Shown here: positions 18,157-42,738 of the stretch, one piece after another | Numbering within the stretch: the first letter of the stretch is position 1 | Layout: each line of letters opens with the position of its first letter | IMG/VR virus record: IMGVR_UViG_3300037258_000279 | Location: 1-64,000 of that record | DNA: 64,000 nucleotides | Strand: one strand, 5' to 3' | DNA from: a virus | Made by a program: the position numbers and the translations under genes | Notes under the pieces: generated by a model | Databases searched by the model: none | The model's input: only the letters and a program-made list of their open reading frames with translations | Told to the model about the DNA's origin: nothing

Positions 18157-18585
18157 GTGAGTGACGACGAGAAACTCCGCGATGATCGCCAAGACCTGAT
18201 CGACGCCATGCAGGCTATCATCGCCGTGCTCGACGGCGTCGAGGGCGAGCTCCCCGCGAAAATCCGCGACTTGGCGCACAAGCCATTCGTCGCGATCGCG
18301 CTGCGCCGGCTCCTGGTCGAGGAAGACACAATAAAGAAAAAGATCGAAGACGACGAGGTCGAAGCACGCGCGCGGCTTCACGTGTATCAACAACACATGC
18401 GGCCGGGCACTGACAATGGCATTCAGTGGGCCGCCCTTGGGCAGCAGATGATGGAGCGGGCGCCGCAAATGCCTCACACCTGCCCGAAGTGCGACGCGAC
18501 CTATGCGACCAGCGGCCCGAGCCGGCACTGTATCATCTGCAACGAGTTGATTGTGAGATCTAGGACTTTTTTGCCAGCGGCATGA
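18157..18585 (+). CDS. hypothetical protein with C-terminal Zn ribbon
   Basis: CPKC...CIIC. Confidence 0.6.
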   Translation: MSDDEKLRDDRQDLIDAMQAIIAVLDGVEGELPAKIRDLAHKPFVAIALRRLLVEEDTIKKKIEDDEVEARARLHVYQQHMRPGTDNGIQWAALGQQMMERAPQMPHTCPKCDATYATSGPSRHCIICNELIVRSRTFLPAA

Positions 18586-18721
18586 TCTTCTCGATCTGGC
18601 GCACCAGATAGGCGTTAACCGATAGGTGCTCGCCGGCCGCCAGACGCTCGATCCGGCGCTTCAACGCCGGCGACATGCGCAAGTAGACACCCTCGGTCGG
18701 ACCTAGGGATTTTCTATTCAT
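18560..18721 (-). CDS. Arc/HicB-like ribbon-helix-helix regulator (53 aa, not in ORF track)
   Basis: MNRKSLGPTEGVYLRMSPALKRRIERLAAGEHLSVNAYLVRQIEKIMPLAKKS; divergent from the RAMP-like gene. Confidence 0.75.
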   Translation of the reverse strand: MNRKSLGPTEGVYLRMSPALKRRIERLAAGEHLSVNAYLVRQIEKIMPLAKKS

Positions 18722-18823: not shown

Positions 18824-19582
18824 ATGGACGGACACGATACCAGCCTTCTCGATCGCCCCATCACGGCCAAGCGTACCACCCGGCGCGGCGGTGCCACCCC
18901 CGAGCCGGAGAACGGCGCCGCCCAAGGCGATGCGGTTAAAGCCGCGGCGGCTGCCGGCAAGACCCAGCGCATCGCTATCGAAGCGCCGAAATTCCAGACT
19001 GTCGCGCTGACCATCCGGGGCATCGTTCCCTACGTCCAGCATCGCTTCAGCCGTAAGGCCCAGAGCATCATGGAGGAAAAGCAACGCGCCGGCAGCGTCG
19101 CCAACAAGGGCAAGGCGCGCAAGGCCAAGGATTTCGACGCGCTCTACGAAGAAGCGATGTATCGGGACAACAAGGGAAATCACGGCATTCCGGCATCGGC
19201 GTTCCGCAACGCGCTGATTTCCGCATGCCGGACGGTCGGCTTCAAGATGACGATCGCCAAGATGTCGTTGTTCTGCGAGGCCGACGCGTTCGATGAGGCC
19301 GACGGCACGCCGCTCGTCCTAATCCGAAAGGGTAAGCCGGAAAAACACATGGGCGCCGTGCGGCTCGCAACTGGTGTTGCCGACATAAGTTGCCGCCCGT
19401 TGTGGCGTCCCGGCTGGGAAGCGGTGGTGCGATTGAGCTTCGACTCGGATCAGTTTTCGCCGACAGACGTGGTCAATCTTCTACACCGCGCCGGGCGTCA
19501 AGTCGGCGTTGGCGAGGGCCGTCCGGACAGCAAAGATTCGGCCGGTTGCGGTTGGGGTCAGTTCGAGATCATCAACCTTTAG
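18824..19582 (+). CDS. solo Cas7/RAMP-like protein (putative guide-RNA-binding effector)
   Basis: LTIRGIVPYVQH strand, GIPASAFRNALISA helix, C-terminal Gly-rich loop AGRQVGVGEGRP..GWGQF; AGGAG RBS. Confidence 0.78.
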   Translation: MDGHDTSLLDRPITAKRTTRRGGATPEPENGAAQGDAVKAAAAAGKTQRIAIEAPKFQTVALTIRGIVPYVQHRFSRKAQSIMEEKQRAGSVANKGKARKAKDFDALYEEAMYRDNKGNHGIPASAFRNALISACRTVGFKMTIAKMSLFCEADAFDEADGTPLVLIRKGKPEKHMGAVRLATGVADISCRPLWRPGWEAVVRLSFDSDQFSPTDVVNLLHRAGRQVGVGEGRPDSKDSAGCGWGQFEIINL

Positions 19583-19599
19583 AAAGCAAGGATTGGTAG

Positions 19600-19940
19600 T
19601 CATTGTTTAGCGGAGCGAATCGGAGCAGGCAAGGCCAGGCTAGGCGGTGCTGGGTGGTCCAGTGCCAGGCAGGCTATTCCCGGCGTGGGGCGGCTCGAAT
19701 CGGCATGGCAGAACGCGGAATGGCATGCTCCGGCACGGCAGGCGCGTCATTGTTTGGGGTGGGCATAGTGCGGTCGGGTGCGGCAGGCTTGTCATTGTGC
19801 GGCATGGTAGGGAATGGGCTACGTGGCAGGCACACCGGGGGCTTGGTACGGCTGGGTACGGGATCGGCATAGCGTGGCGCAGATCGGCTGGGCAGCCGTG
19901 GGTAAGTGAGGGTAGGCGTGCGTGGCGATTCATAGCAGGC
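19600..19940 (+). repeat. pentamer (NN-GGY) array 1, punctuated by RGCAGGC; putative guide-RNA array
   Basis: 5-nt periodicity; boundaries at 19624, 19668, 19737, 19782, 19825, 19891 (GGCAGCC), 19911 (GGTAGGC), 19934. Confidence 0.85.
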
Positions 19941-19956
19941 AAGGAGTTGGAAAATC

Positions 19957-20418
19957 GTGACGATCAAAAGTGAGATTCTGGCGTTAAAGGGCCGGACTGG
20001 TGAAAAACTTCACGCCGGACAAGTGATCGATTGGGCGCGCGCGCATCCTAATTCTCGGCTGCACCGTGCAATCGAGTGGAACGACGCAAAAGCCGCGGCC
20101 GATTACCGGCTGTGGCAGGTGCGTCAGCTCATTCAGGTGCATGTTGTCGACGAGGACGACGCGCCGATCTTCGTGAGCCTGTCGGTCGATCGTACCGCTG
20201 GCGGGGGCTATCGGGCGATATCGGACGTGCTCAAATCGCGGACTCTTTCTGAGGTGATGTTCAGCGACGCCGCCGAAGAGCTTAAGCGCGTGCGCGAAAA
20301 ATATGAGTTGGTCGACGGCCTGATGGAGGTCTGGCGCGCGGTCGACAAGGTCAATAATCGCCGGGCGCGCAAGAAGGCCGCGGCGGAGAAGGGTGGTGGC
20401 GACGCCGCTCGAACCTGA
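19957..20418 (+). CDS. conserved phage protein between the two arrays
   Basis: AAGGAG RBS; SRLHRAIEWNDAKAAADYRLWQVRQLI, GGGYR. Confidence 0.8.
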   Translation: MTIKSEILALKGRTGEKLHAGQVIDWARAHPNSRLHRAIEWNDAKAAADYRLWQVRQLIQVHVVDEDDAPIFVSLSVDRTAGGGYRAISDVLKSRTLSEVMFSDAAEELKRVREKYELVDGLMEVWRAVDKVNNRRARKKAAAEKGGGDAART

Positions 20419-20878
20419 ACGGCACAATCTGGGAGGGCCGGACTGGCGATTCAGGGAATGGCTCGGTAGGGATAGAATCGGCAGGCAGCCCGTGGCTCGT
20501 CTTTGCAAGCCTCGGCTCGTCTTTGCGGGGCACGGCGTGGAAAAGCAGGCAAGACGCGGCTTAGCGGGGGGGGGGCAGGGCAGTTCGCGGCAGGCGATGA
20601 GTTGCCAGACATAACGGGGCGAGGTCCGGTACTGCGAAGCAGGCGTGGAGAAGCATCGCACGGCAGTGAGTAACGAAGTCCGGCGTGGTGTGGCTGGCCC
20701 TCCTTGGCGGGCAATGCTAGGCGGTGCGGGGCAGGGCAGGTAGTCGTATGGCAGACCTTGGCAGGTTTGGCGTTGTCTGGCATGGCAGCACTACCTAGCG
20801 TGGCCTTACAGGGCGATACTTGGCTAGGCGAAGCAGGCGAGGCAGACCGCGCGGCGAAGAGGTATCGGTAAGGCTGGC
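20419..20878 (+). repeat. pentamer (NN-GGY) array 2, punctuated by RGCAGGC; putative guide-RNA array
   Basis: fills the whole intergenic gap; boundaries at 20480, 20544, 20589, 20638, 20692, 20735, 20760, 20832, 20872. Confidence 0.85.
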
Positions 20879-38519: not shown

Positions 38520-38594
38520 TGGAGCCGGCGGAGGGAATCGAACCCGTCGTTGGGACGTTACGAATGTCCTGTCCTGCCACTGAACGACGCCGGC
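38520..38594 (-). tRNA. tRNA-Thr(CGU)
   Basis: cloverleaf, encoded CCA, loop UUCGUAA. Confidence 0.85.
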
Positions 38595-38599
38595 GATGG

Positions 38600-38673
38600 T
38601 GGTGGGCCTGCTCGGAATTGAACCGAGATCAACGCCTTAAAAGGGCGCAGCTTGACCTTCCAGCTACAGACCC
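38600..38673 (-). tRNA. tRNA-Lys(UUU)
   Basis: loop CUUUUAA, CCA. Confidence 0.8.
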
Positions 38674-38677
38674 GAAT

Positions 38678-38754
38678 TGGTGCGTCGCCTCGGATTCGAA
38701 CCGAGACTTGCCGGGATTTGAAGCCGGTGCTTCTGCCAATTGAGCGAGCGACGC
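38678..38754 (-). tRNA. tRNA-Leu(CAA), short variable arm
   Basis: loop UUCAAAU, CCA. Confidence 0.78.
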
Positions 38755-38758
38755 GAAA

Positions 38759-38833
38759 TGGTGGTCCCGCAAGGAATCGAACCTTGATCCCGAGATTCGG
38801 ATTCTCGGATGCTATCCGTTGCACTACGGAACC
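38759..38833 (-). tRNA. tRNA-Arg(CCG)
   Basis: loop AUCCGAA, CCA. Confidence 0.85.
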
Positions 38834-38910
38834 GGCACCGGTGACAGGAGTCGAACCTGCATCGTCCAGTTATGCACCGACCGCTTAGAAGGCGAGGCCA
38901 ATACACCGGC
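38834..38910 (-). ncRNA. D-armless tRNA-like RNA with UCU anticodon loop
   Basis: acceptor GCCGGUG/CACCGGU, T-arm GCAGG-UUCGACU-CCUGU, loop CUUCUAA, 7-nt linker in place of D-arm, 19-nt variable region, ends GCC. Confidence 0.65.
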
Positions 38911-38918
38911 AAAAAGTC

Positions 38919-38995
38919 TGGCGCACCCGGAGGGATTCGAACCCCCAACCTCTCGATCCGTAGTCGAGCGCTCGGTCCAGTCGAGCTGCGGGTGC
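38919..38995 (-). tRNA. tRNA-Arg(ACG)
   Basis: loop CUACGGA, CCA. Confidence 0.9.
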
Positions 38996-38999
38996 AATC

Positions 39000-39075
39000 T
39001 GGCGCCTCGTAGCGGATTCGAACCGCTGTCTCCGGAGTGAAGGTCCGGCCACCTAGCCGCTAGTAAGAACGAGGC
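39000..39075 (-). tRNA. tRNA-Glu(UUC)
   Basis: loop CCUUCAC (C33), CCA. Confidence 0.85.
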
Positions 39076-39079
39076 AATC

Positions 39080-39154
39080 TGGTAGGCGCGGGCGGGGTTG
39101 AACCGCCGACCTCCTGCGTGTCGAGCAAGCGATCTACCGCTGATCTACGCGCCC
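39080..39154 (-). tRNA. tRNA-Val(GAC)
   Basis: loop UCGACAC (C33), CCA. Confidence 0.85.
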
Positions 39155-39158
39155 AAGC

Positions 39159-39233
39159 TGGTACCCCGCGACGGGATCGAACCGCCGACATCCTCGGTGT
39201 AAACGAAGCGCTCTACCTCTGAGCTAGCGGGGC
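39159..39233 (-). tRNA. tRNA-Val(UAC)
   Basis: loop UUUACAC, CCA. Confidence 0.88.
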
Positions 39234-39238
39234 ATGTT

Positions 39239-39315
39239 TGGTCGGAGTGAGTGGATTCGAACCACCGGCCCCAGCGTCCCGAACGCTGTGCTCTGCCATG
39301 CTGAGCTACACTCCG
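39239..39315 (-). tRNA. tRNA-Pro(CGG)
   Basis: loop UUCGGGA, CCA. Confidence 0.9.
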
Positions 39316-39320
39316 TCATC

Positions 39321-39396
39321 TGGCGCTCTTGGTGAGGCTCGAACTCACAACCCCCGAACTAGGATTTCGGTGCTCGTCCGATCGAGCTGCAAGAGC
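39321..39396 (-). tRNA. tRNA-Arg(CCU)
   Basis: loop AUCCUAG, CCA. Confidence 0.85.
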
Positions 39397-39400
39397 AAAT

Positions 39401-39478
39401 TGGTGCGGGCGACAGGATTCGAACCTGCGACTTCCCGGTCCCAAACCGGGCGCTCTGGCCTGACTGAGCTACACCCAC
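39401..39478 (-). tRNA. tRNA-Pro(UGG)
   Basis: loop UUUGGGA, CCA. Confidence 0.85.
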
Positions 39479-39487
39479 GAACGAAAC

Positions 39488-39561
39488 TGGCGCTTCCAGT
39501 CGGGATCGAACCGGCGTTGACGGCGTGACAAGCCGCTCTCCTACCATTGGAGGATGGAAGC
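39488..39561 (-). tRNA. tRNA-Asp(GUC)
   Basis: loop UUGUCAC, CCA. Confidence 0.85.
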
Positions 39562-39570
39562 AAACGAATT

Positions 39571-39645
39571 TGGTGGGCTGCCAGGGACTCGAACCCTGAA
39601 CCTACGGATTAAGAGTCCGCTGCGCTACCATTGCGCCAGCAACCC
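39571..39645 (-). tRNA. tRNA-Lys(CUU)
   Basis: loop CUCUUAA, CCA. Confidence 0.9.
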
Positions 39646-39648
39646 GAT

Positions 39649-39724
39649 TGGTGGGCCAGTACGGGGTCGAACCGTCATCGGACGCTTATCAAGCGTCTGC
39701 TCGCAGCCGTTGAGCTACAGGCCC
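39649..39724 (-). tRNA. tRNA-Ile(GAU)
   Basis: loop UUGAUAA, CCA. Confidence 0.85.
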
Positions 39725-39725
39725 G

Positions 39726-39810
39726 TGGTGGGTCGGCGTGGTGTCGATCCACTCCCCCGCAGGGACGGGTTTTACAGACCCGCTGCCGGATCCGCCGGCT
39801 TTGCCTTCCC
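39726..39810 (-). tRNA. tRNA-Tyr(GUA)
   Basis: loop CUGUAAA, long variable arm, CCA. Confidence 0.8.
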
Positions 39811-39816
39811 GTGATC

Positions 39817-39891
39817 TGGTGCCCGGTGACGGATTTGAACCGCCGGCCTCTCCCTTACCGAGGGATTGCACTGCCGCTGTGCTAACCGGGC
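39817..39891 (-). tRNA. tRNA-Thr(GGU)
   Basis: loop UCGGUAA (C33), CCA. Confidence 0.85.
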
Positions 39892-39896
39892 ATACC

Positions 39897-39988
39897 TGGC
39901 GGTGCCGGAGGGATTCGAACCCTCGGGCCGGCTTTCACCGGCCAACGGTTTAGCAAACCGCCGCCTTCGGCCACTCGGCCACAGCACC
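39897..39988 (-). tRNA. tRNA-Ser(GCU)
   Basis: loop UUGCUAA, long variable arm, CCA. Confidence 0.9.
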
Positions 39989-39992
39989 ATGT

Positions 39993-40082
39993 TGGAGGAA
40001 CGTGATGGCATCGAACCATCAGCCGCTCGCGCGGCGCCCCGGGTTTCAGAGCCGGTGAAGGAGCCAACCTTCGGCACGTTCC
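39993..40082 (-). tRNA. tRNA-Ser(UGA), atypical D-arm
   Basis: loop UCUGAAA (C33), D-stem GAAGG/CCUUC, U discriminator, CCA. Confidence 0.75.
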
Positions 40083-40085
40083 AAT

Positions 40086-40173
40086 TGGCGGTTGGGGTGA
40101 GATTCGAACTCACGGTGCCCGTAGGCACTCCGGGTTTCGGGTCCGGCGCAATCGGCCACTCTGCCACCCAACC
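40086..40173 (-). tRNA. tRNA-Ser(CGA)
   Basis: loop CCCGAAA (C33), long variable arm, CCA. Confidence 0.82.
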
Positions 40174-40182
40174 AAACGAATC

Positions 40183-40272
40183 TGGCGGACGGTGAAGGAT
40201 TCGAACCTTCGGTGCCCAGAACGGGCACGCCGCGATTCCAACGCGGTGCAATCGCCACTCTGCCAACCGTCC
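40183..40272 (-). tRNA. tRNA-Ser(GGA)
   Basis: loop UUGGAAU, long variable arm, CCA. Confidence 0.88.
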
Positions 40273-40276
40273 GAAC

Positions 40277-40360
40277 TGGTGTCCCCGGGGAGAGTCGAAC
40301 TCCCACGCCGCGAGGCACAGGCACCTCAAGCCTGCGCGTCTACCATTCCGCCACGAGGAC
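40277..40360 (-). tRNA. tRNA-Leu(GAG)
   Basis: loop UUGAGGU, CCA. Confidence 0.9.
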
Positions 40361-40365
40361 AATTT

Positions 40366-40450
40366 TGGTGCGAGCCGGGAGAGTCGAACTCCCATGTCTT
40401 GCGACACTCGGTCCTGAGCCGAGCGCGTCTGCCTATTCCGCCAGGCTCGC
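40366..40450 (-). tRNA. tRNA-Leu(CAG)
   Basis: loop CUCAGGA, CCA. Confidence 0.9.
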
Positions 40451-40456
40451 GTGATC

Positions 40457-40532
40457 TGGTGCGGGCATCGGGAGTCGAACCCAATGGAAGCCAGGGTTTA
40501 GGCCCGGCCGCGTCACCGTGCGCCATGCCCGC
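40457..40532 (-). tRNA. tRNA-Leu(UAA), short variable arm
   Basis: loop CCUAAAC (C33), CCA. Confidence 0.72.
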
Positions 40533-40536
40533 ATAT

Positions 40537-40612
40537 TGGCGTCCCGCGGGGGAATTGAACCCGCCGTTTCCCGAGTGAGAGTCGGGGTTCCTGACCGCTA
40601 GAAGAGCGGGAC
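40537..40612 (-). tRNA. tRNA-Glu(CUC)
   Basis: loop CUCUCAC, CCA. Confidence 0.85.
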
Positions 40613-40617
40613 ATGGT

Positions 40618-40693
40618 TGGCTGCGGCGGAACGGATTCGAACCTTCGACCTGCGCGCTCAAAACGCGCTGCTCTACCGCTGAGCTACGCCGCA
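40618..40693 (-). tRNA. tRNA-Gln(UUG)
   Basis: loop UUUUGAG, CCA. Confidence 0.85.
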
Positions 40694-40699
40694 ACAAAT

Positions 40700-40773
40700 T
40701 GGCAGGGCGGCTCGGATTCGAACCGAGGCGAACGGAGTCAGAGTCCGTTATGCTGCCGTTACATCACCGCCCA
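40700..40773 (-). tRNA. tRNA-Gln(CUG)
   Basis: loop CUCUGAC, CCA. Confidence 0.88.
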
Positions 40774-40780
40774 TCAAAAC

Positions 40781-40855
40781 TGGTGCCGGTAGAGAGGATT
40801 GAACTCCCGACCTTCGCATTACAAATGCACTGCTCTGCCGCTGAGCTATACCGGC
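40781..40855 (-). tRNA. tRNA-Thr(UGU)
   Basis: loop UUUGUAA, CCA. Confidence 0.9.
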
Positions 40856-40932
40856 TGGGGTGAGTAGTGGGGATCGAACCCACGAATGATCGGTTCACAG
40901 CCGACCGCGTTAGCCACTTCGCCATACCCACC
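40856..40932 (-). tRNA. tRNA-His(GUG)
   Basis: loop CUGUGAA, G-1/C73, CCA. Confidence 0.88.
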
Positions 40933-40943
40933 ACGAAAATGCT

Positions 40944-41015
40944 ACCCGGTGGTCTTGCCTTGAAACGACGCCCCACGCGTGAGACGGACAGGTATCGAAA
41001 CCTGCATCACCGGGT
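40944..41015 (-). ncRNA. circularly permuted tRNA-like RNA (Y RNA/YrlA-like topology)
   Basis: ACCCGGUG, T-arm, loop-closed acceptor-like stem, D-arm with GG, CACCGGGU. Confidence 0.65.
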
Positions 41016-41020
41016 TCTTT

Positions 41021-41094
41021 TGGAGGTGCGCCGCGGAGTCGAACCGCGATTGCGGGATTTGCAGTCCCGAGCCTAGCCGTTCGGCCAGCGCACC
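41021..41094 (-). tRNA. tRNA-Cys(GCA)
   Basis: loop CUGCAAA, U73, CCA. Confidence 0.9.
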
Positions 41095-41098
41095 AATC

Positions 41099-41174
41099 TG
41101 GCACCGGGGGAGGGATTCGAACTCTCGACACGCGGTTTTGGAGACCGCTGCTCTAGCCACTGAGCTACCCCGGT
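41099..41174 (-). tRNA. tRNA-Trp(CCA)
   Basis: loop CUCCAAA, CCA. Confidence 0.9.
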
Positions 41175-41177
41175 AGA

Positions 41178-41771
41178 TCAATAAACTCCGTTCCTGCTGT
41201 CGGTGCGAAGCCATTTTCTGACGGCCGCTTCTGATACGCCATATCTCGCGGCGACTTTGACTCGAGATGCCCGCACCACCATTTCCCGAAGCCGCTTTCC
41301 TTCGGGTCTGTCCGGGACCTTAGCTTTAGCCTGAGACCGACATCGATTGCTGCAAAACTTTAAGCCGGCTCGCAAAGGGGCGCCGCACTTTTCGCATGCT
41401 GCCCCATCGTCACGCGGGAGGGTCGCAATGTTCCTTCTCGTGACGCGACCATTACGCATAGATAGCGGGATTGTTGCCTCGTCAAAGCGCCGAATATTGT
41501 CTGGGATTCTGGTGCTCCCCTCATGCACCTCGTCGTGGCAGTTGTGACATAGCATCACACATTTTCTTGCCTCGTCCGCGACCCGCTTCCATGATCGCGG
41601 GACACCGTTGGACGCCATGCTAAATTTTTTCTGCGCCGGCTCGACGTGATGGAACGTCAAGGCGCGCATCGACTTCGCGTAACCGCAAATTCCACAACGG
41701 CCGCCGAACGCGACGACGAGCTTTTCTTTCATTCGTTGCCGCCAACGAACGACCGCAGCGCCACCGCTCAT
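41178..41771 (-). CDS. HNH homing endonuclease inside the tRNA array
   Basis: start MSGGAA; CGICGY..ALTFHH..KCVMLCHNCHDEVH; CEKC..FCSNRC; C-terminal HTH YGVSEAAVRKW. Confidence 0.88.
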   Translation of the reverse strand: MSGGAAVVRWRQRMKEKLVVAFGGRCGICGYAKSMRALTFHHVEPAQKKFSMASNGVPRSWKRVADEARKCVMLCHNCHDEVHEGSTRIPDNIRRFDEATIPLSMRNGRVTRRNIATLPRDDGAACEKCGAPLRAGLKFCSNRCRSQAKAKVPDRPEGKRLREMVVRASRVKVAARYGVSEAAVRKWLRTDSRNGVY

Positions 41772-41773
41772 TT

Positions 41774-41848
41774 TGGCTCCCCGAGCTGGACTCGAACCAG
41801 CGACCTGCCGCTTAACAGGCGGTTGTTCTACCACTGAACTACCGGGGA
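41774..41848 (-). tRNA. tRNA-Asn(GUU)
   Basis: loop CUGUUAA, CCA. Confidence 0.9.
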
Positions 41849-41957
41849 AAAAACTGAAAGAGAGTTGCCGAAGCTCCCACTGCCCGGGCTTTTCCGCGCG
41901 GGTTCGCCACACGATTTCTCGCTGGCGTGGCCCCGACGGACGGCTGCCCGTGTCGGA

Positions 41958-42032
41958 TGGAGCGGGCGACGAGAATCGAACTCGCGACATTCTGCTTGGA
42001 AGGCAGAAGCTCTACCCCTGAGCTACACCCGC
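41958..42032 (-). tRNA. tRNA-Gly(UCC)
   Basis: loop CUUCCAA, CCA. Confidence 0.92.
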
Positions 42033-42106
42033 AATCTTGTGCTCGCCCCGGTCGGCGCTGTCGTGAACAGCATGGAGTGACTTGGCCACAACCGACCGGG
42101 ACGAAT

Positions 42107-42182
42107 TGGTGCCGAAGAGTGGAATCGAACCACTGACACCCACGCCTTCAACGTAGTGCTCTACCTGCTGAGCTACTTCGGC
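42107..42182 (-). tRNA. tRNA-Phe(GAA)
   Basis: loop UUGAAGG, CCA. Confidence 0.88.
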
Positions 42183-42418
42183 AAATTTCTCGGGGCTGGA
42201 TTTGTCATTCCTCCGTTCCTTGCTAGCAGGGGGAGTCGCAGATACCAGCATACAGGATTGCGGCACAGCCACCTTTAGGCTGGCGCTACCAGCCGCTGCG
42301 TCCTTGGTGTTTGGACGACCCGAGAATCTTCCGGCGACCGGACCAAGTTCTCATGCAGGAGATCCCGCCAAGGTCCGAACATTTGCATCATTGACGCCTT
42401 AGGGGCGTACCGCCGAGT

Positions 42419-42495
42419 TGGTTGCGCTGGCCGGCAATCGAAGCCGGCGACCTTCGGGTTATGGACCCGACGAGCTACCTCTGCTCCACAGCGCG
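42419..42495 (-). tRNA. tRNA-fMet(CAU)
   Basis: C1:A72 mismatch, GGG/CCC anticodon stem, loop UCCAUAA (C33). Confidence 0.85.
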
Positions 42496-42500
42496 TCAAA

Positions 42501-42576
42501 TGGTGGCAGGGGTGGGAGTCGAACCCGACGACCTGAGCGTTATGAGCGCACCGATCTACCGCTGATCTACCCTGCT
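42501..42576 (-). tRNA. tRNA-Met or Ile2 (CAU)
   Basis: loop CUCAUAA, CCA. Confidence 0.8.
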
Positions 42577-42583
42577 ATCGAAT

Positions 42584-42658
42584 TGGAGCGGGCAATGGGA
42601 GTCGAACCCACGACCTCAACCTTGGCAAGGTTGCGCTCTGCCCCTGAGCTATGCCCGC
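42584..42658 (-). tRNA. tRNA-Gly(GCC)
   Basis: loop UUGCCAA, CCA. Confidence 0.92.
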
Positions 42659-42662
42659 AAAT

Positions 42663-42738
42663 TGGTGGAGGTAGAGGGACTCGAACCCACGACATCCTGC
42701 TTGCAAAACAGGCGCTCTCCCAACTGAGCTATACCCCC
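42663..42738 (-). tRNA. tRNA-Ala(UGC)
   Basis: loop UUUGCAA, G3:U70, CCA. Confidence 0.92.

Follow-up and report, generated by a model that had tools for sequence, protein, structure and literature searches.

Organisation of the locus

The window (the whole stretch of DNA analysed here, 64,000 nucleotides long) covers the first 64 kb of a viral record that is complete at 93,664 bp and carries direct terminal repeats. Two unusual gaps between genes lie within it: one of 374 nt (19583-19956), between rightward ORFs of 252 and 153 aa, and a second of 460 nt (20419-20878), following the 153-aa ORF. In both, the + strand is G-rich, with GC skew reaching +0.34. The features are listed below under the names suggested by the interpretation that we favour:

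18824..19582, + strand: putative vipr gene, for a 252-aa minimal RAMP protein (Cas7-like), judged from an AF2 model, fold matches and a profile match to phage SUSP1
19583..19956, + strand: putative vrRNA array 1, NN-GGY pentamers in five units
19957..20418, + strand: vap-like accessory gene, for an all-helical 153-aa protein whose C-terminal tail is basic
20419..20878, + strand: putative vrRNA array 2, with boundaries at 20480, 20544, 20589, 20638 and 20832; the second half is degenerate

Directly upstream of vipr, on the opposite strand, is an ORF for a 53-aa ribbon-helix-helix protein of the HicB/Arc-like kind (18560-18721, - strand), possibly a regulator of the operon. The 205-aa ORF located 3' of array 2 was considered as a further part of the system and rejected, as it was present in none of 56 loci. 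Elsewhere in the window, a tightly packed set of 35 tRNA genes covers nearly all amino acids (38520-42738, - strand); tRNAs were all that Rfam recovered at gathering thresholds. Scans for promoter and terminator consensus sequences around the locus gave background levels, and blastn of the region against phage records gave one short match, inside the vipr gene. No cas families were seen among the neighbouring genes in Pfam and PHROGs searches, nor any CRISPR-like repeat-spacer array in the tandem-repeat output for the window.

A RAMP protein related to Vipr

VIPR, a CRISPR-like phage weapon, was first described in 2026. As set out in that preprint, its parts are a minimal RAMP protein (Vipr), an accessory vap gene and vrRNAs made up of 9-16 YNNGG repeats, in which GGY is conserved and NN is variable; double-stranded DNA is read with one base skipped between successive NN pairs (bioRxiv 10.64898/2026.04.26.720920). 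Those systems reported as characterised bind dsDNA, are able to hit either strand and silence transcription (bioRxiv 10.64898/2026.04.26.720920; 10.64898/2026.04.26.720927). Among them is the type II system of Escherichia phage SUSP1, which has been studied experimentally (bioRxiv 10.64898/2026.04.26.720920, 10.64898/2026.04.26.720927, 10.64898/2026.10.15.759431).

The family of the 252-aa protein is large and unnamed, with 3472 database proteins at E <= 0.001, and its conserved core corresponds roughly to residues 50-252 of this protein. The N-terminal 50 aa or so (18824-18990) are unaligned and are modelled with low confidence (pLDDT for the whole AF2 model, 80.7). Homologues are typically of 210-240 aa, and the true start of the ORF may lie further downstream. 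The best 40 or so PDB fold matches of the model are all to CRISPR RAMPs (VIA Z from 10.5 down to 6.0, Foldseek probability 1.0), comprising Cmr4, Csm3, the Cas7 proteins of types VII, I and IV, and then Cas6. Vipr proteins are characterised by an RRM core, a glycine-rich loop and a thumb, and the fold matches agree with this. The glycines of the C-terminal loop GVGEGRP...GCGWG are invariant in the family, and in the model the beta-hairpins at residues 163-207 would correspond to the thumb.

When the family profile was run against phage SUSP1, a single ORF was matched, its Vipr (ALH47069.1; E 1.7e-5). A comparison by hhalign of the 252-aa family with SUSP1 Vipr gave a probability of 85% and E 6.7e-6 over 47 columns, spanning the C-terminal hairpin, helix and glycine loop, and the two proteins are about 21% identical over 177 aligned columns. 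In SUSP1 Vipr, the GGY contacts are made by H17, R138, D177 and R179 (bioRxiv 10.64898/2026.04.26.720927). These residues are aligned by MAFFT to H73, R191, E231 and R233 of the 252-aa protein, all of them invariant or nearly so within its family. The tryptophan W178, which stacks on the second G in SUSP1 (bioRxiv 10.64898/2026.04.26.720927), is not kept, being aligned to G232; we would guess that an invariant tryptophan nearby, W244, may replace it. The SUSP1 vipr gene is itself flanked by pentamer tracts of the GGT type, one upstream and three 3' of the next gene, which matches the layout given in the preprint. In view of the RAMP fold of the 252-aa gene product and its homology to SUSP1 Vipr, we therefore assign the locus to the VIPR systems.

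Pentamer periodicity of the two gaps

Imperfect NN-GGY pentamers run through both gaps and are confined to the + strand. The first gap (19583-19956) contains 43 GGY triplets. When pairs of triplets no more than 40 nt apart were counted, 79 were separated by multiples of 5, compared with 21.6 +/- 6.0 in 2000 dinucleotide-preserving shuffles, none of which reached 79; 22 of the spacings between consecutive triplets were multiples of 5 (6.2 +/- 2.3 in shuffles). The corresponding number of pairs in the gap containing array 2 was 73, against 21.5 in shuffles. Across the genome (93.7 kb), these two gaps are the best-scoring period-5 windows, again only on the + strand. The genome has a third GGC-dense stretch outside the window (G000 82000-82400), where the spacings are multiples of 3 and which looks like a coding region on the - strand, rich in Gly, Pro and Met, rather than an array.

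A register parse of array 1 yielded 72 pentamers, including 33 with perfect GGY and 22 matching it at two of the three positions, together with 18 slip bases. If a candidate vrRNA is taken to be a set of at least four tandem YNNGG units flanking vipr, array 1 contains in-register runs of 8 and 13. Both runs had been described in the first-pass annotation, and the letters and the parse bear out its account in full: eight pentamers occupy 19631-19670 before an AGGC, thirteen occupy 19675-19739, and the NN strings are those it had quoted (given in the list below). The single-base slips that it had reported in the later units are also seen in the parse.

Three ORFs of 89-108 aa overlap the array. 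A coding function was rejected, as a 5-nt period is incompatible with it and the arrays of relatives vary freely in length.

Units and their boundaries

The heptamer RGCAGGC is not enriched in the window as a whole (30 copies found, 26 expected), and 11 of the 30 are on the + strand within 19624-20838. Six of these subdivide array 1, at intervals of 44, 69, 45, 43 and 109 nt, as follows:

19624..19630, + strand: boundary AGCAGGC, the first of array 1
19631..19670, + strand: unit 1, 8 pentamers, NN = AA CA TA GG TG GG AG CA
19668..19674, + strand: boundary GGCAGGC
19675..19739, + strand: unit 2, 13 pentamers, NN = TA CC GT GC TC TC AT AG GC AT AT CC AC
19737..19743, + strand: boundary GGCAGGC
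19744..19786, + strand: unit 3, degenerate, with a one-base slip past the boundary; includes GTCATTGT
19782..19788, + strand: boundary GGCAGGC
19789..19829, + strand: unit 4, degenerate; includes GTCATTGT
19825..19831, + strand: boundary GGCAGGC
19832..19938, + strand: unit 5, long, 20 pentamers with four +1 slips; best in-register run at 19859-19913 (11 NN)
19934..19940, + strand: boundary AGCAGGC, the last of array 1, abutting the AAGGAG ribosome-binding site of the next gene

The spacings of GCAGGC in array 2 include 64 and 49 nt, and five of the boundary spacings in this locus (44, 69, 109, 64 and 49) are of the form 5k-1. We consider the boundary to be real. Read as GGC-A-GGC, it would be a place where neighbouring pentamers overlap by a single base, with a -1 shift of register. 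The first-pass annotation had proposed RGCAGGC as a processing or boundary signal dividing the array into discrete, guide-sized units; as a unit boundary it has held, through the recurrence of GCAGGC in related loci and the extent of the match of unit 2 to its target (both described below). Its estimate of about 6-8 RNAs was somewhat high: six boundaries with five intervals between them fit better with 5-6. Two of the units, 3 and 4, are degenerate.

The folding of the array RNA was no better than that of shuffles (z +0.54), and a conserved tail between units is absent. With their slips and poor GGY, units 3-5 may be decayed, as may array 2 in its second half.

Some smaller repeats were also seen. 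Three copies of the octamer GTCATTGT lie within 200 nt of sequence (19601-19610, 19747-19756 and 19791-19798), one of them 5' of the first boundary and the others near the starts of units 3 and 4, in differing registers; these copies may be the trace of unit duplication or a separate signal. Within the first unit of array 2, GGCTCGTCTTTGC is duplicated in register, 20 nt apart (20497-20536). Another unit of array 2 has a run of 9-11 G (20562-20574) and a boundary spacing of 45 nt, which is not 5k-1; the run could reflect a genuine slip or an error in homopolymer length.

Arrays and accessory genes in related loci

A survey with one genome per prokaryotic species gave 50 loci with a homologue of the 252-aa protein, from Planctomycetota, Verrucomicrobiota, Bradyrhizobium, Roseococcus, Azohydromonas, cyanobacteria and others. 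A period-5 GGY array adjoined the vipr homologue in 41 of the 46 loci analysed, representing many bacterial phyla. Among consecutive GCAGGC spacings of up to 120 nt in these 46 loci, 158 of 227 were of the form 5k-1 (4 mod 5), with modes at 44, 49, 54 and 59 nt, equivalent to 8-11 guide pentamers per unit. GCAGGC is a recurring feature of the arrays next to homologous RAMP genes, at over 40 independent loci. In a logo of 148 units, positions 3-5 of the pentamer were G, G and C at 90%, 92% and 80%, positions 1-2 were free, and the register shift at the boundary was evident. Since the guides in these >40 loci are unrelated, the maintenance of the 5k-1 spacing argues for selection on the boundary itself.

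Related viral contigs carry the same type of array at the syntenic place. In one of them (L006, 2560-4145), an uninterrupted pentamer array of 1.6 kb lies directly 3' of vipr; it includes near-identical 49-nt units, has a strong intrinsic terminator at its end and is followed by a vap-like gene. In a relative of lower GC content (L007, 4652-5014), the 5-nt period has GT or GC at pentamer positions 4-5 (NNRGT-like), not GGC, a variant consensus of a kind that is mentioned in the text of the VIPR preprint (bioRxiv 10.64898/2026.04.26.720920).

The 153-aa accessory protein matches phrog_15946, and its homologues are found beside vipr homologues in 43 of 56 loci, almost always directly downstream and on the same strand. 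Its AF2 model (pLDDT 79.6) is all-helical. Fold searches with this model gave Foldseek E values above 1 and VIA Z scores of at most 6, on a helical hairpin, and BLASTP detected no similarity to SUSP1 vap1.

A target for unit 2

The first-pass annotation had suggested searching for gapped patterns built from the NN strings, and with unit 2 this was rewarded: the pattern TAnCCnGTnGCnTCnTCnATnAG... picks out, in 19 viral contigs, a conserved motif of a gene. The seed scanned across IMG/VR consisted of the central nine NN pairs (18 bases), under the one-base-skip rule. It was found at 21 viral loci, compared with 2-3 each for three other 18-base seeds from the locus. In 19 of the 21 (in 19 viral contigs) the match extends over the whole unit, with no more than one of its 26 NN bases differing; ten of these matches are perfect, and the skipped bases vary among the target loci. 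All 19 targets are in frame in a single gene family (P63C/phrog_2384), in which the opposite strand reads VGIIALIDEATGY or a one-residue variant of it. The P63C domain (PF10546) was present in all five target proteins tested, and the three scanned against PHROGs were all phrog_2384, a family of unknown function. The NN pairs correspond to codon positions 1-2 of the target and the skipped base to the wobble position, so synonymous changes would provide no escape from unit 2.

The pentamers on either side of unit 2 (the CA of the preceding CAGGC, and the one that follows) are mismatched to the target. The complementary stretch is therefore exactly that between two boundaries, beginning just past one and stopping at the next. 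As a control for register and skip, each nine-pentamer window of both arrays was compared in five registers, with skips of 0-3, to five complete target genomes; 18/18 matches were obtained only for the true register of unit 2, under a skip of 1. The 19 targets are homologous to one another, and so amount to one independent 26-base match, not nineteen; given a background of 2-3 matches per 18 bases, a match over 26 bases is not expected by chance.

The P63C gene is absent from the phage's own genome, and there was no self-target in that genome, the best matches there being equal to those of shuffled guides. Conversely, vipr is absent from the five target records tested. Two of these five are flagged as proviruses, and one has its P63C gene two ORFs from an integrase gene. 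In a complete target phage of 56.6 kb (G001), the P63C gene lies between tail-fibre-like genes and a gene for a tyrosine integrase (L034, 3901-7114), from which we take this phage to be temperate. Judged by its complementarity, unit 2 has a natural target, and appears to be a guide directed against the best-conserved motif of the P63C-domain genes of other phages, most of them temperate.

Six units were tried in all, by exact-seed scans with a one-base skip, which miss targets with mismatches in the seed; a recognisable target was found for one. Unit 1 (16 bases) matched 25 loci, which were mostly copies of one sequence, and none of which was in a real reading frame. The best run of unit 5 (16 bases) matched 11 loci, with extension at chance level, and with a 20-base seed gave a single match in metagenomes, to an 812-aa bacterial ORF and without extension. 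From array 2, 18-base seeds of the units at 20487, 20596 and 20645 matched 3, 2 and 2 loci, respectively, with chance extension and no common gene family. The guides of relatives, compared with five P63C-bearing phage genomes and with all the loci collected for the analysis, gave matches equal to background under all four skip rules.

Interpretation and alternatives

Together, arrays 1 and 2 very probably make up the guide-RNA array of a VIPR system encoded by the phage. The gene order is vipr, array 1, accessory gene, array 2, and transcription would presumably be rightward. By analogy with the published systems, from which we infer transcription, processing at boundaries, filament formation, DNA binding and silencing, one protomer of the Cas7-like Vipr would be bound to each NN-GGY pentamer, sequestering GGY and presenting the two variable bases, and the filament assembled on a single unit would read dsDNA by the one-base-skip rule (NNxNNx...), with silencing of the bound gene as the expected outcome. 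The units, parted by GGC-A-GGC with its one-base overlap of pentamers and -1 shift of register, would form a tail-less array of the staggered kind; the fact that the unit 2 guide ends exactly at boundaries supports this reading.

It is possible to go further, and to imagine that no cleavage takes place at GGC-A-GGC, where the shift of register would instead end one Vipr filament and start the next, and that unit 2 acts as a broad-spectrum guide. If this were so, a single long, tail-less transcript could carry several independently phased guides, and unit 2 would silence P63C genes in temperate phages of widely differing hosts, because only the amino-acid-determining bases of an almost invariant motif are read. 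Taken together these two propositions are speculative, and we think it rather unlikely that both will prove correct.

Of the competing explanations, the most serious accepts that this is a VIPR locus, and supposes that array 1 is mostly decayed or a decoy, with one or two working guides and with RGCAGGC as a leftover of duplication. The slips and weak GGY of units 3-5 would be in keeping with this, as would the five units without a target, and growth by duplication is suggested by the occurrence of GTCATTGT in both units 3 and 4 and by the internal 20-nt duplication of array 2. However, unit 2 includes four poor pentamers and nevertheless has a perfect target, so poor GGY need not signify a dead unit; exact-seed scans are an insensitive means of finding targets; and the 5k-1 spacing of GCAGGC has been kept, among unrelated guides, in more than 40 loci across phyla. 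On balance, we regard general decay of array 1 as unlikely, though worth keeping in mind.

A second explanation is that the guides act on RNA, with unit 2 as an antisense silencer of P63C mRNA within a Cas7-like filament such as that of type III CRISPR. All 19 target genes are indeed matched by unit 2 in the orientation antisense to their mRNA, and the closest solved folds, Csm3 and Cmr4, are of RNA-targeting proteins. Against this, the VIPR systems described as characterised in the preprints bind dsDNA, hit either strand and silence transcription, and one guide provides no statistics on the choice of strand. It seems very unlikely that RNA is the target.

We give scarcely any credence to a third idea, in which the 153-aa protein wraps the repeats as DNA, in the manner of an iteron, centromere or operator array. 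It would account for the flanking of the 153-aa gene by both arrays, its co-occurrence with them and the basic tail of its product, but a 5-bp period would set successive sites on opposite faces of the duplex, and it would be left unexplained why the pentamers keep strictly to one strand, why a RAMP gene adjoins them and why unit 2 has a gapped match in a foreign gene. Moreover, the 1.6-kb array of L006 ends in an intrinsic terminator, as a transcript would. Finally, nothing besides the simple look of the sequence speaks for a functionless slippage microsatellite or compositional artefact, which can to all intents be dismissed, as the first-pass annotation had argued in the former case: the NN positions vary while the register is constant, no shuffle in 2000 reached the observed periodicity, and the feature is conserved in kind at a syntenic place across phyla.

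Several other candidates had been entertained for the G-rich gaps, namely an RNA sponge of the TRAP-like or CsrA-like type, iterons or a centromere, G-quadruplex or R-loop elements, and Rho avoidance. The RAMP fold and the gapped target led us to drop them all.

With the guide-array interpretation, the nature of the G-rich gaps is settled, and they provide a natural example, from an uncultured phage, of the VIPR code beyond the E. coli and Pseudomonas systems that the preprints report as tested. As the VIPR class is already in print, in three preprints of 2026, the gain is incremental; its code, the wobble logic and the choice of conserved catalytic motifs as targets have likewise been published, as far as the text of the 2026 VIPR preprints shows. 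Particular to this locus are the P63C target class, the breadth of GGC-A-GGC across phyla and a guide that ends at boundaries. By reading VGIIALIDEATGY, unit 2 marks out the P63C genes, of unknown function, as important to rival temperate phages, and the presence of GGC-A-GGC across many phyla, with a decoded guide extending exactly from boundary to boundary, provides comparative evidence for the staggered layout.

Comparison with known systems

The nearest counterparts appear to be the 'staggered' VIPR arrays, in which neighbouring vrRNAs overlap by 1 nt, the end of one being the start of the next (bioRxiv 10.64898/2026.04.26.720920, legend to fig. S18). Like this locus, staggered systems, as presented in that preprint, have a lone minimal RAMP gene, an accessory gene and arrays of GGY/NN pentamers; their one-base overlap of units would be equivalent to GGC-A-GGC with 5k-1 spacing, an identity that we infer from the figure legend. 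The preprint states that sRNA-seq confirmed the ribozyme-interspersed and single-guide layouts, without saying the same, in its main text, of the staggered one (bioRxiv 10.64898/2026.04.26.720920). The GCAGGC boundary motif has no occurrences in the main text of that preprint, and its spread across phyla is likewise absent from this text.

With the type II system of SUSP1, the locus shares a homologous Vipr in which the key RNA-contact residues (H, R, D/E, R) are kept. As the SUSP1 system is presented in the preprints, it also shares GGY/NN guides of 9-16 repeats in which the one-base skip falls on codon wobble positions, and a guide aimed at a conserved coding motif of a rival mobile element. 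The differences lie mainly in the guides. Those of SUSP1 are described as individual RNAs about 100 nt in length, all of them ending in a structured, invariant 3' tail of some 40 nt, and are placed one upstream of vipr and three after vap1, whereas the units here are contiguous, of 43-109 nt, and without a tail. The pentamer is GGC-rich here and GGT-rich in SUSP1, and the target here is a P63C gene, unlike those in the published VIPR main texts, in which P63C is not named as a target (bioRxiv 10.64898/2026.04.26.720920, 10.64898/2026.04.26.720927, 10.64898/2026.10.15.759431). Because the units abut through GGC-A-GGC without a tail, and without excess folding, we have not placed the locus in type II.

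More distantly, VIPR resembles the Class 1 CRISPR-Cas systems, in which filaments of Cas7, Csm3 or Cmr4 are assembled on a crRNA. The RAMP fold and the glycine-rich loop are common to both, as is the arrangement by which one protomer is allotted to each short step of RNA and bases are flipped at a fixed period. In Class 1 CRISPR-Cas this period is of 6 nt, with five bases read, whereas in VIPR it is of 5 nt, with two bases read; the information in the guide is non-contiguous, and the system is phage-encoded. With no cas families among its neighbours and no repeat-spacer array, this locus has the minimal two-gene context of VIPR, and of the hallmarks of CRISPR-Cas only the RAMP fold is shared.
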